Positions 1 to 3,769 of a stretch of DNA of 9,457 bases are shown piece after piece (the first letter of the stretch is position 1; every line of letters starts with the position of its first letter). The DNA is taken from the IMG/VR virus record IMGVR_UViG_2657245660_000018. One strand, 5' to 3'. The DNA comes from a virus. Lineage: Duplodnaviria; Heunggongvirae; Uroviricota; Caudoviricetes. The translations under genes were made by a program, and so were the position numbers. Under the pieces are notes generated by a model. It made no database searches and was not told the DNA's origin. It was given only the letters and a program-made list of their open reading frames with translations.

Positions 1-173
1 TGTCAGTTATCATCTTCGGTTACGGTTATCGGCAGAACGCCCTGCCGCTGACAAGAGCTTATTTGCCTGACCAATCTACTCCACATGATAGATAACTATC
101 ATTTATAACATTTCATTGATTAGTCTTTATTTTTCACTATGTTACAAATAACAACTCCGTCAAAAACAGCGAA

Positions 174-197
174 ATTAACTACACCATTAACTACACC
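174..197. repeat. perfect tandem direct repeat, 2 x 12 bp (ATTAACTACACC)
   Basis: Read directly: attaactacacc at 174-185 and again at 186-197. Confidence 0.85.
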
Positions 198-203
198 GTT
201 TCA

Positions 204-240
204 CGAACAATATCGAACAACCACGAACAAAGATCAACAC
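204..240. repeat. helically phased short direct repeats (CGAACAA x3 plus TCAACAC, 10-bp period)
   Basis: CGAACAA at 204-210, 214-220, 224-230 and related TCAACAC at 234-240; the spacing is exactly 10 bp. Confidence 0.75.
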
Positions 241-293
241 GCTTTAACCGTTATCATTTTCCGGCCATCCGTTATGAAGCTGGTGGATGTTCC

Positions 294-396
294 CCGATAT
301 GGGTATCCCCACCTACCTGGCTTTTTTTCCGGTTAAATGTTAATCAGGCTGGTGGCCTTTACATACCCTTGATCACGGTAATGATGATTCAGGTGC
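294..396. repeat. copy 1 of a ~100-bp direct-repeat module (degenerate hairpin plus 83-bp core)
   Basis: Core 314-396 matches 851-933 at 81 of 83 positions. The preceding CCCGATATGG hairpin (294-313) is degenerate in this copy. The copy ends in a second hairpin, TTTTCCCC-agt-GGGGTAAAA, at about 401-420. Confidence 0.8.
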
Positions 397-536
397 GTAC
401 CTTTTCCCCAGTGGGGTAAAAGCTCCAACCGTAACGATGTTCGTTGTGGTTGCCTTGATGGTCTGCGTGGTCATTATGACCATTCAGAATTTGAAGGGTG
501 ATGTTTCCGATCTCCTCAAATTGAGGATTGTGGAAG

Positions 537-549
537 AATCAATGGGTTA
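537..549 (+). promoter_or_regulatory. exact match to IHF core consensus WATCAANNNNTTR (AATCAATGGGTTA)
   Basis: Consensus match read directly. It is part of a recurring AATCAATGGGTTAG unit. Confidence 0.5.
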
Positions 550-590
550 GTCTTACTTTCCCAACATCCCCCAATGGGGGTTTTCGAAAT

Positions 591-603
591 AATCAATGGG
601 TTA
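591..603 (+). promoter_or_regulatory. exact match to IHF core consensus (AATCAATGGGTTA)
   Basis: Second copy of the AATCAATGGGTTAGG unit. It is flanked by the palindrome CCATAGTGCA-attt-TGCACTATGG (606-629). Confidence 0.5.
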
Positions 604-742
604 GGCCATAGTGCAATTTTGCACTATGGAACAATTCCAACCAGTTATCGGCATCAGGCCCACCAGCCAACGCAATTTTGCGCTTTGCTTTAATCTCAGT
701 AAGTTACCGCGCCAATTTCCGCAGTCTGTGGAAATTGGGAAG

Positions 743-755
743 AATCAACGGGTTA
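743..755 (+). promoter_or_regulatory. exact match to IHF core consensus (AATCAACGGGTTA)
   Basis: Third copy of the unit, same orientation. Confidence 0.5.
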
Positions 756-796
756 GGCTGGTTTCCCCGATGTTCGCCGCTGGCGAATTTCGAAAA

Positions 797-809
797 TATC
801 AACCAGTTA
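797..809 (+). promoter_or_regulatory. exact match to IHF core consensus (TATCAACCAGTTA)
   Basis: Related unit. A degenerate fifth copy (TTCCAACCAGTTAT) lies at 635-648. The hairpin TTCGCC-gct-GGCGAA and the palindrome ATTTCGAAAT lie just upstream (774-795). Confidence 0.45.
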
Positions 810-818
810 CCGCCGTAT

Positions 819-933
819 CCCGATATGGTGATCCCCATATCGAGATTGGATACCTGGCTTTTTTTCCGGTTAAACGTTAATCAGGCTGGTGGGCTTTACA
901 TACCCTTGATCACGGTAATGATGATTCAGGTGC
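819..933. repeat. copy 2 of the ~100-bp direct-repeat module (hairpin 819-844 plus 83-bp core 851-933)
   Basis: CCCGATATGG (819-828) pairs with CCATATCGAG (835-844) at 9 of 10 positions. The core is near-identical to 314-396. Confidence 0.8.
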
Positions 934-936
934 TTC

Positions 937-962
937 CCCGATATGGTGATCCCCATATCGGG
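937..962. repeat. inverted repeat / hairpin CCCGATATGG-tgatcc-CCATATCGGG
   Basis: Perfect 10-bp stem with 6-nt loop, 17 nt beyond the capsid-homologue stop codon. Same motif as 819-844. No U-tract follows on the minus strand, so it is not a canonical intrinsic terminator. Confidence 0.75.
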
Positions 963-978
963 ATAGATGCTGGAAAAA

Positions 979-1902
979 TCAGCTTTTCGCCAGAACGGTG
1001 ACGGCCTTATCGAGTTTTTGCCATCCGCAATAGGTGATTGCCCTGAACGCTGTAGCGTCATTCTGGAAAAGGCTAACCGCCCCTGATTCGGTTTTTATTA
1101 CCGCCTCATCAGTTGGGGTTATAACCGTGGCTTCAACGTTAATAATCAGCTTTTGAGCGTCTATCAGCATCATGCGATCCGCCTGTTCGCTCACAATTAC
1201 CGGTATTCTCAAAAGCTCTATCTGCCAGAACTCAGCATCAGTAAGCTGTAAGGCGTTTTCTACGGGCAATATTAGCGACGACGTGGAAAGCGTGTTACCG
1301 TTCGCTATGTGCTTTTTGAAAATCTCTATGAAGTTTTCGGCCTCATCAGCACCATTAAGCACGCCCTCAGGGGATACGCCAGCCACCTCCTGATCACTGG
1401 AAAGAAATTTTTTATCTATTTCTTTCACCGATTCCGATGTGATCAAGTCTCTGATCGCTGAATTTGTACCAGGGGTGCTAAATTTGATTAGCTCGTTATT
1501 CAGCATCACAATAGCGCCAAGTTTGCACAATTTTAGCGCACTTTCGTTTACTTCTCCCTCTTTGACAGGGATTTCTTCGGCTTCTTTAAGCCATTTACTA
1601 CCCTTGCCTGATATTGAATGCAATTTTGCGCCAAACGGAAGATTAAGCGCGCTGCTGATTAGCTTGCCTGGTACAGACTGCGAAAAAATATACTCGCCAA
1701 GCTCTCTTACTATCGGCTCTGCCACCAGCGACGGCATGTTATCCGTAGTCATTCTGTTGACGATGGATTTTTCAAGAAATTTCGATACTGCCGGATCATT
1801 TCTTTTCGTCATCTCTATAGCGTCAGCATGGCTAAATTTACACGATGCCAGCACGCTGGCGGCGCGAACTGCTGACACGCCTTTCATGTTTTTACAGATC
1901 AT
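979..1902 (-). CDS. HK97-fold major capsid protein homologue (307 aa); possibly a capsid-size-redirecting capsid paralogue
   Basis: ATG at 1902 preceded by GGAGGAGGAAG. Two stretches resemble conserved blocks of the HK97-type Phage_capsid family: NSAIRDLITSESVKEIDKKFLSSDQEVAGVSPEGVLNG, and ELLRIPVIVSEQ with a C-terminal AFRAITYCGW. This is recognised by eye, not by search. At 307 aa it is short for a capsid protein with an N-terminal delta domain. Confidence 0.7.
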   Translation of the reverse strand: MICKNMKGVSAVRAASVLASCKFSHADAIEMTKRNDPAVSKFLEKSIVNRMTTDNMPSLVAEPIVRELGEYIFSQSVPGKLISSALNLPFGAKLHSISGKGSKWLKEAEEIPVKEGEVNESALKLCKLGAIVMLNNELIKFSTPGTNSAIRDLITSESVKEIDKKFLSSDQEVAGVSPEGVLNGADEAENFIEIFKKHIANGNTLSTSSLILPVENALQLTDAEFWQIELLRIPVIVSEQADRMMLIDAQKLIINVEATVITPTDEAVIKTESGAVSLFQNDATAFRAITYCGWQKLDKAVTVLAKS

Positions 1903-3530: not shown

Positions 3531-3755
3531 CTCTACCTCTTCTACCTAATCATCTTTCAGGTCAGTAATGGCGCGGCTTTCAGATGGGTAGAGGACTTTT
3601 CGTGGCCCTCTACCCATCCTCTACCCGCCCCTCACAAACGACCTTAATCATGGTAGAGGGGGTAGAGGGGTTTTATTAGCCTTCTACCTATCCCTCTACC
3701 CACTTATCATGTTGAATAATATGCGTTTATTTCATTCAGGTAGATGGGGTAGAGG
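3531..3755. repeat. iteron array, candidate replication origin (11 copies of GGTAGAGG / CTCTACC in alternating orientation)
   Basis: CTCTACC at 3531, 3540, 3608, 3619, 3682 and 3694; GGTAGAGG at 3587, 3652, 3661, 3739 (GGTAGAT variant) and 3748. Paired copies are 9-12 bp apart. AT-rich stretches flank the array (3481-3515, 3761-3780). It lies immediately 3' of the primase gene. Confidence 0.75.
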
Positions 3756-3769
3756 GCTTTTACAAAAAA

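Follow-up and report, generated by a model that had tools for sequence, protein, structure and literature searches.

Copies of a conserved end module and an array of putative Roi/Rha-type sites at the distal end of an Escherichia coli phage-inducible chromosomal island

Closest described systems

This study concerns two near-identical direct repeats, and the segment rich in integration host factor (IHF) motifs that they bracket, in IMG/VR virus record IMGVR_UViG_2657245660_000018. The window, by which we mean the whole 9457-bp stretch of DNA that was analysed, is a satellite of the AlpA-type, tyrosine-integrase class of phage-inducible chromosomal island (PICI), inserted between clpS and cspD. 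The Roi protein of phage HK022 reportedly binds a site inside its own gene beside an IHF site, and IHF is said to stabilise the binding. A 1996 paper whose title links Roi to IHF (Clerget & Boccard 1996, J Bacteriol 178:4077) is cited in PMC3430580. The binding-site result for HK022 Roi was restated in no open paper that we found, and a look for solved Roi structures returned none. The segment between the repeats of the window consists of six head-to-tail units of about 54 bp, here called cassettes, each with a different palindrome followed by an IHF-type box. They resemble the reported roi-internal site of HK022 and its equivalents in having a palindrome, a distance of 17 bp and the IHF consensus WATCAANNNNTTR on the same strand, and they differ from it in lying outside genes, in non-coding DNA, with 6-8 allele types placed head to tail. 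No Rha, Roi, KilA-N or ANT domain was found in the ten open reading frames (ORFs) of the window that were scanned, and RefSeq annotates none. With no Rha/Roi-type protein in the scanned ORFs, any binder must come in trans; since the element encodes no Roi/Rha protein, the cassettes are not an autoregulatory site, and binding to them is a prediction.

For the repeats, the closest relatives in design are phages without a Rec module that carry clusters of Chi, namely LLS and related phages (PMC12315714). The likeness lies in the missing Gam/Red genes, in a Chi density several-fold above the host average and, in relatives of the window that bear a lambda-type cos, in a Chi site that lies no more than about 1 kb from the "right" (cosQ-side) end and is oriented for recognition by RecBCD entering there. 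The differences are that the present element is a satellite with only one to three Chi sites at its end and no recognisable lambda cos in the window, and that 20 of the 23 Chi sites of LLS share one orientation (PMC12315714), whereas the window has seven on the + strand and four on the - strand. The paper that describes the "no Rec module - many Chi" lambdoid phages (PMC12315714, Genome Res 2025) does not mention satellites.

Other known arrangements share parts of the layout. RIP/RIB, the IHF-binding bacterial interspersed mosaic elements (BIMEs), also have an extragenic IHF consensus beside palindromes; theirs is one IHF site between two of the same repetitive extragenic palindromic (REP) units, dispersed in many copies, whereas a cassette has a single palindrome, differing from unit to unit, on one side only, and is low-copy and found only at PICI ends. 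Decoy arrays such as E. coli datA for DnaA and plasmid iterons are, like the cassettes, tandem non-coding copies of a protein site, and the silent pilS cassettes of Neisseria likewise store copies of a hypervariable gene segment away from their gene. The resemblance to datA, iterons and pilS is one of layout only, and no sign of titration or gene conversion was seen here.

The two main papers on the model island EcCICFT073 say nothing on this region, IHF, RecBCD, palindromes or inverted repeats, and a full-text search returned no paper tying Chi and RecBCD to PICIs beyond one general review. No described counterpart of the cassette array was found, and its function is putative. We propose that the region is a conserved, non-coding, cis-acting distal end of the PICI that works as DNA, with Chi acting at the repeats and Roi/Rha together with IHF at the array; judged from sequence comparison, this proposal has about an even chance of being correct.

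The repeats and the end module

A repeat search of the window returned a direct repeat of 88 nt at 95% identity (314-401 and 851-938), with its copies 537 bp apart. In agreement with an earlier note on this DNA, the cores at 314-396 and 851-933 are identical at 81 of 83 positions, the differences being confined to 338 (A/C) and 356 (C/G). A chance origin of a near-identical repeat of 83 nt is impossible. The hairpin that had been described on both sides of copy 2 was located as palindromes at 819-844 and 937-962, and copy 1 was likewise found to have a degenerate hairpin upstream (293-311) and a different one, CCCCagtGGGG, downstream (407-417). Perfect palindromes whose arms measure 6 bp or more number eight between 280 and 969; 200 dinucleotide shuffles gave 1.7 +/- 1.2 of them (maximum 5), and elsewhere in the window a tile of 690 bp holds 0-3. 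Each core also contains a Chi octamer, GCTGGTGG, on the + strand (348-355 and 885-892), which the earlier note had overlooked.

Of 5426 complete E. coli genomes, 951 carry the 87-nt core, at a median of one place each and at no more than four, and every context that was inspected is the distal end of a PICI. These contexts comprised islands at clpS, islands at phoQ (including Shigella), a capsid-forming PICI (cf-PICI) with HNH-TerS-TerL at tqsA, and the model island EcCICFT073. A search of 596 Gb of contigs with the 16-mer TTRATCAGGCTGGTGG gave nearly all chance matches and one useful locus, from Shigella. We aligned 23 IMG/VR loci, which gave 21 distinct module versions in total. The full module is about 190 bp long and starts with a near-perfect 22-bp palindrome, CGATATGGGGATCCCCATA(T/A)CG. 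It continues with an ACCGGA-T(6-8)-TCCGGT hairpin and the string TTAATCAG-GCTGGTGG-GnTTTAC, retained in 19 of the 21 distinct relatives, then with a variable stretch of 33-39 nt that occurs as two alleles, and finally with a highly conserved right-hand block containing three more palindromes. This block, at 401-490 in the window, is the best-conserved stretch of the alignment. The module is at least 90% conserved across islands that differ in their attachment (att) sites and packaging modules. Most islands have a single module, and a second copy beyond the array is present in the window and in relatives L132 and L003.

On the best reading of these comparisons, the repeats are two copies of the left part of a conserved PICI end module. 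Among the origins that had been considered for them, a duplicated site comes closest; two copies of part of a conserved PICI end module is the portion of that idea which stands, and a cis-acting role is what our interpretation would add to it. The view that the repeats are neither REP nor enterobacterial repetitive intergenic consensus (ERIC) elements holds, given the median of one place per genome and the restriction to PICI ends where contexts were inspected. The suspected link to satellites was borne out in every one of these contexts, and the survey of copy number and context across E. coli showed the core to be neither a genome-wide repeat nor absent from related islands. REP, BIME and ERIC elements were rejected as candidates because they would be present in tens to hundreds of dispersed copies per genome, against a maximum of four for the core. 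A REP/BIME arrangement, with one palindromic unit on both sides of an IHF site, was also set aside, as each unit here has one palindrome, on the 5' side only, and all of them are different.

The palindromes at 819-844 and 937-962 place core copy 2 between 27-nt inverted repeats of 93% identity, and they could be taken for the inverted ends of an element similar to a miniature inverted-repeat transposable element (MITE). We find a MITE-like origin barely credible. Each "end" is itself a palindrome, which stands singly at the start of the module in all relatives; the flanks, GCCGTAT and ATAGATG, show no target-site duplication; the core occupies one to four places per genome, all of those inspected being PICI ends; and no transposase relative is present. 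The missing target-site duplication, the low copy number and the PICI-end contexts also speak against the remnant of a small non-autonomous element that had been suggested for the repeats.

Small ORFs over the module (36-45 aa on the - strand and 26-37 aa on the + strand) belong to no Pfam or NCBIfam family. A small-protein or type I toxin gene was rejected, since the C-termini shift frame between alleles and the four substitutions between the main alleles are all non-synonymous; the + strand small ORF was rejected as a gene because it is broken in L125 and L136.

Comparison of relatives also bears on how the second copy arose. In L003 and L132, the module to the left of the array and the one to its right are different alleles. 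L142 occupies the att site of L003 and corresponds to L003 with the array removed; in it the left part of module 1 is joined to the right part of module 2. The mixed alleles of L003 and L132 and the fusion pattern of L142 are as expected if modules of related islands recombined homologously, in both directions. The second, cut-down copy is best explained as the product of homologous or unequal recombination between the modules of related islands, and the difference between L142 and L003 suggests that the array is lost or gained by way of the direct repeats. The duplication would then be a by-product of array exchange that is not needed for module function, and possibly also the vehicle of that exchange.

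In many relatives (L066, L124, L129, L133, L136 and L146), the window not being among them, a piece of about 60 nt that matches the holin/endolysin junction of Shiga toxin (Stx) phages lies to the right of the module. Four GTCAC repeats at a spacing of about 10 nt come after this piece; in L133 the two together occupy +70 to +260 from the anchor. The holin/endolysin piece and the GTCAC repeats are another phage-derived or cis-acting element in the non-coding end.

The cassette array and phage roi/rha genes

All four exact matches of the window to the IHF consensus WATCAANNNNTTR lie within the array, at 537-809 on the + strand, with 0.64 expected in the whole window. Of 22 distinct PICI cassettes, which were chosen by the IHF consensus itself, 21 have the W of WATCAANNNNTTR 16-18 bp from the centre of the palindrome. 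The number of cassettes varies from 0 to 8, and their type and order are reshuffled between near-identical islands, a turnover typical of a fast-evolving interaction determinant. A CRISPR array was considered and rejected: the shared part is a degenerate IHF-like box of 13-20 nt, the "spacers" are palindromes, and there is no cas gene.

BLAST searches against phage genomes gave partners for five of the six cassettes of the window, with 35-58 nt at 84-91% identity and in differing genes; this kinship of the IHF-rich units with phage roi/rha was absent from the earlier note. Cassette 1 matched 58 nt at 90-91% identity inside roi of JLK-2012 and Stx1a phages, with E = 3e-12 (8e-12 with a longer pooled query), and cassette 2 matched 40 nt at 87.5% identity in roi of VT2-Sakai, HK629 and PA phages. 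The type of cassette 4 was found in Rha-like regulator genes of P13374 and many Stx2a phages, cassette 5 in the Roi-like "DNA-binding protein" gene of Stx1_499, and cassette 6 in a Roi-like gene of Stx2_EH1910. Cassettes of other islands matched roi of TL-2011a, Roi-like genes of ASU11 and of Salmonella ST46, and a KilA-N gene of ST64B. Nine matches were checked, and each falls 89-177 nt into a Rha-domain/Roi or KilA-N gene and on its sense strand. The matched genes encode the Rha domain PF09669, accompanied by KilAC/ANT or ORF11CD3 in those that were scanned, or KilA-N. An alignment of seven Roi proteins showed that the matched DNA codes for the hypervariable segment located between GVIR and INNLG.

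The geometry of the cassettes was also found in the phage genes. The distance from palindrome centre to IHF motif is 17.0 bp in five of the six roi genes measured, including that of HK022; in the sixth, from VT2-Sakai, the script picked another palindrome, and the imperfect roi palindrome gives 17 by eye only. As both the sequence and the 17-bp geometry match, the PICI cassettes reproduce the site inside roi/rha. Around roi codons 43-58 (L147-L149, L152, L154, L155 and L157), the allele-specific palindrome encodes the most variable stretch of the protein, and the IHF consensus 17 bp past it encodes I-N-x-L. Because the palindrome encodes this most variable stretch, the putative binding site is the DNA of the variable protein segment itself.

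These matches bear on the possibility that the distal end is a junkyard of leftovers from PICI-phage and PICI-PICI recombination, in which the repeats would be a neutral scar of unequal crossover. Several observations agree with such debris: the second copy is cut short and missing from most relatives, the number of cassettes falls to zero in some of them, L142 resembles a simple deletion product, and an unrelated phage fragment, the holin/endolysin junction, stands at the same place in other relatives. However, debris would not sample the same stretch of about 50 nt from one gene family in nine of nine cases, in one orientation and head to tail, nor would it keep the symmetry and the 17-bp IHF spacing without coding constraint. 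The conservation of the module, at least 90% across differing att sites and packaging modules, is not expected of debris either, and we consider this explanation unlikely.

A function at the RNA level was weighed as well. On the transcribed strand the region comes straight after the last gene, and it might be transcribed either with the leftward late operon, whose 3' untranslated tail it would form, or from the rightward promoter-like sites of the cores (358-385 and 895-922), with its hairpins acting as RNA. In one variant, the cassettes, read from the - strand, would pair as antisense RNA with the roi/rha mRNAs of helpers and silence them, the longest perfectly complementary stretch being 38 nt (cassette 1); in another, the hairpins would merely stabilise the 3' end of the operon. 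The cassettes are sense to roi on the + strand and would be antisense in operon read-through, the predicted folding is very strong (z about -7), and the + strand hairpins contain a few G-T pairs. Several results argue against RNA, however. Rfam gave no match at the gathering threshold over the window, and at a permissive threshold over 1-1100 it gave only a chance snoRNA match (E = 0.65). Folding of both strands, a check that the earlier note had proposed, gave z values of -6.8 and -7.8; the two fold equally well and carry no strand signal. The search for terminator-like sites found none, and promoter-like sites were no more frequent than in shuffles (3 found, 2.3 expected). The palindrome centres, mostly 0-3 nt, are a better fit for DNA sites bound by dimers than for hairpins in RNA. 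At its four free positions, the IHF box varies from one cassette to another, and the IHF-box differences between cassette 2 and its phage partner are confined to these free positions, which fits protein binding over base pairing. In several cases the palindrome of the PICI comes closer to perfect symmetry than that of the phage, a feature that antisense pairing would not select. We regard an RNA-level function as quite improbable, and the structured RNA motif that had been put forward for the repeats finds no support in the Rfam result, the equal folding of the strands or the short palindrome centres.

The promoter-like sites of the cores are sigma-70-like, rightward and antisense to the island genes. 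At the aligned position, the alternative module allele has TGtTATGAT, which is extended -10-like.

Chi sites, packaging and the proposed role

The window contains 11 Chi sites (GCTGGTGG) in 9457 bp, against 0.19 expected from shuffles; they start at 279, 348, 885, 4731, 5590, 5886 and 6515 on the + strand and at 660, 1722, 7015 and 8566 on the - strand. Chi density is 0.94-1.18 per kb in three related islands. Two of the three flanks of these islands have 0.17-0.45 per kb, and the third flank, which is short, is not lower; 184 kb of island sequence from IMG/VR has 1.08 per kb. The E. coli K-12 average is one Chi per 4.6 kb (PMC12315714). The whole island has about five times the E. coli average, with enrichment on both strands. 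Neither Gam/Red nor recombinase genes are present in the RefSeq annotation of the island, and no such Pfam domains were found in the ten ORFs scanned.

The position of the module Chi relative to cos was compared in those relatives that possess a cosN of the lambda type (the L002 group, the L125 group, L131, L136, L146 and EcCICFT073). All seven have the nearest cosN and the module Chi on one strand, with cosN 0.68-1.03 kb further right. Of the two cos ends, RecBCD enters the one that terminase does not hold, and the active Chi reads 5'-GCTGGTGG-3' on the strand that starts with GGGCGGCGACCT (PMC12315714, citing Kobayashi et al. 1982). From this rule and the same-strand position, the module Chi is the first active Chi from the free end in these cosN-bearing relatives. 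In the window, the lambda-type cosN 12-mer GGGCGGCGACCT has no match within 290-970, and its sole match with one mismatch lies inside the primase gene.

The absence of lambda cosN from the window indicates that the repeats are not of the cos1/cos2 type. A wider packaging role was nevertheless considered, in which the repeats and palindromes would be cos or pac sites, or accessory sites like cosB or IHF I1, for the TerS-like protein. The island encodes such a protein, the window has no lambda cosN, lambda cos is assisted by IHF sites, EcCICFT073 has two cos sites (PMC6092414), and the region is near cos in relatives. The comparison with lambda cosB (R sites and IHF I1) and with cos1/cos2 of EcCICFT073 extends to IHF-type sites near a packaging site and to duplicated cis sites in PICIs; it breaks down in that the array, 0.2-0.6 kb from cosN on the side of cosQ, contains no repeats of the R type and occurs with unrelated packaging systems. 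In relatives, cosN and the cosB side are separate from the array, 0.2-0.6 kb past it and beyond a small ORF. The module and array occur with Rpp/lambda-cos, with cf-PICI HNH-TerS-TerL and with TerS-like systems alike, and GTAAC repeats at 2317-2600, in and near the TerS-like gene, make a better pac candidate. A packaging signal therefore appears very improbable.

In EcCICFT073 (L153, 7600-19300, reverse-complemented), inverted lambda-type cosN sites at 993 and 1732 flank a small gene and presumably correspond to the cos1/cos2 pair that has been described around rpp. To the left of the first cosN, at a distance of 0.3-0.7 kb, this island has the module and three cassettes. The two inverted cos sites of EcCICFT073 might be related to the missing orientation bias of Chi in the islands.

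Under the proposal that the region works as DNA, the co-oriented Chi sites (279, 348 and 885) would switch RecBCD from degradation to recombination when it enters from the packaging end, and would thereby protect a replicon without Gam/Red genes. Chi would also make the modules hotspots of recombination, between which the array could be gained, lost or swapped. The six cassettes, as copies of the roi/rha motif of palindrome, 17 bp and IHF box (mostly from Stx phages here), would dock or titrate Roi/Rha-type proteins of several possible helper phages, together with host IHF. The island might benefit from such binding through sensing of the helper, through interference by titration, or through a roadblock to read-through.

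A number of points weigh against this proposal. L142 and some other relatives have no cassettes. To our knowledge, lambda has no roi. EcCICFT073 is mobilised by lambda (PMC6092414), and from this and the cassette-free relatives it follows that the array is not essential for induction or transfer. Cassette 3 has no phage partner in BLAST, and cassettes 4-6 are individually weak (E = 0.2-0.6), being convincing only through their shared position and strand. No significant phage homologs of the module or its palindrome were found, the matches being 22-25 nt with E of at least 1. Chi is lost in two of the 21 module versions (kept in 19) and is enriched on both strands, with the 7 + and 4 - of the window joined by 79 + and 120 - in relatives; the module Chi could be part of this general enrichment rather than a dedicated end guard. 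This window has no lambda-type cosN from which the end of RecBCD entry could be read, and the promoter-like site in each core leaves room for a role at the RNA level.

A further step, which we offer as possible yet doubtful, is that the array serves as a device for recognising multiple helpers, a "catalogue" of optimised operator-plus-IHF sites from many roi/rha alleles, whose repertoire is exchanged through the Chi-bearing repeats and tracks the local phages. If so, a PICI resident in Shiga toxin-producing E. coli (STEC) could dock or titrate the early regulators of any Stx or lambdoid phage that becomes active, and thus sense it or interfere with it, by means of a DNA-encoded, non-CRISPR catalogue of helper phages. 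Should the cassettes bind Roi/Rha, they would be the first cis-acting helper catalogue in a satellite and would provide a function for the poorly understood roi/rha, and satellites of STEC could modulate the development of Stx phages. The Chi enrichment would carry the strategy of "no recombination genes - many Chi" from phages to satellites, and the presence of the same module in EcCICFT073 makes the Chi idea testable there.

Features and island context

The features of the region are listed in Table 1.

Table 1. Mapped features at the distal end of the island, by position in the window
Feature	Position	Strand	Remarks
Probable att core, left copy, TGATAGATAACTATCATTTAT	86-106		Left edge of the island; clpS directly left of the window
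Integrase arm-type repeats, ACTACACC x2 and CGAACAA x3	167-239	+	Block repeated (74%) beside int
Chi GCTGGTGG, extra upstream copy	279-286	+	Also present in L125 and L134
P0, degenerate module palindrome CCCGATATGGGTATCCCCA	293-311		Mostly near-perfect 22-bp CGATATGGGGATCCCCATA(T/A)CG in relatives
Core copy 1	314-396	+	T-loop hairpin 315-333; Chi 348-355; promoter-like TTTACA-16-AATGAT 358-385
Right-hand module block	401-490		After copy 1 only; CTTTTCCCCagtGGGGTAAAAG hairpin; imperfect palindrome AACCGTAACGAtgtTCGTTGTGGTT; palindrome TGGTCATtATGACCA 468-482
Cassette 1	504-552	+	Palindrome TCCTCAAATTGAGGA 513-527; IHF consensus AATCAATGGGTTA 537-549
Cassette 2	553-605	+	Palindrome CCCCCAATGGGGG 568-580; IHF consensus 591-603
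Cassette 3	606-650	+	Palindrome CCATAGTGCAATTTTGCACTATGG 606-629; degenerate IHF-like box
Cassette 4	651-709	+	CGCAATTTTGCG 671-682; IHF-like box
Chi inside cassette 4	660-667	-	Octamer search
Cassette 5	710-758	+	CCAATTTCCgcagtctgtGGAAATTGG 712-738; IHF consensus 743-755
Cassette 6	759-811	+	TTCGCCgctGGCGAA 773-787; IHF consensus 797-809
P1, module palindrome CCCGATATGGtgatccCCATATCG(A/G)G = CCCGATATGG-tgatcc-CCATATCG(A/G)G	819-844		5' of core copy 2
Core copy 2, cut-down	851-933	+	Without right-hand block; Chi 885-892; promoter-like site 895-922
P2, module palindrome, same CCCGATATGGtgatccCCATATCG(A/G)G form	937-962		16 bp before the stop codon of the capsid-like gene
Capsid-like gene, last of the island	979-1902	-	Pfam Phage_capsid; RefSeq annotation

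The first 1100 bp of the window are identical to a chromosomal island in O157:H7, O103 and O111 strains. From right to left, the genes of the island encode a tyrosine integrase, AlpA, an Icd-like protein, a DUF4222 protein, a D5-type primase, a TerS-like protein and a capsid-like protein, a set that defines an AlpA-type PICI (PMC6092414). The probable att core recurs as a 21-nt direct repeat (90%) beyond int, at 20616-20636 of L001, and the arrangement ACTACACC-ATTA-ACTACACC is kept in relatives inserted at phoQ and tqsA. No tRNA or tmRNA integration target was found in the window. Given the att and arm-type repeats at 86-239 and the last gene at 979-1902, the repeat region occupies the distal end of the island, which is non-coding, and starts immediately within the att arm. 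A role of the module as an attP arm was rejected, as the arm-type repeats stop at 239 and the array is too long and too variable in number for an intasome.

Other repeats were observed elsewhere in the window. Direct and inverted GTAAC repeats (GGTGTAACTTTT...) at 2317-2398 and 2574-2600 lie inside and just upstream of the TerS-like gene (2065-2553, - strand), and are a possible pac site or binding site for TerS or a regulator. Iterons of the GGGTAGAGG type, with an inverted repeat, occur at 3570-3762, directly downstream of the primase gene, and are probably the replication origin of the island. The repeat region was accordingly rejected as the origin, the iterons beside the primase gene being the better candidate. 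Finally, a 24-nt inverted match (83%) was seen between 264-287 and 8565-8588, the latter inside the integrase gene; both members contain Chi, and the match may be due to chance or be a trace of recombination.

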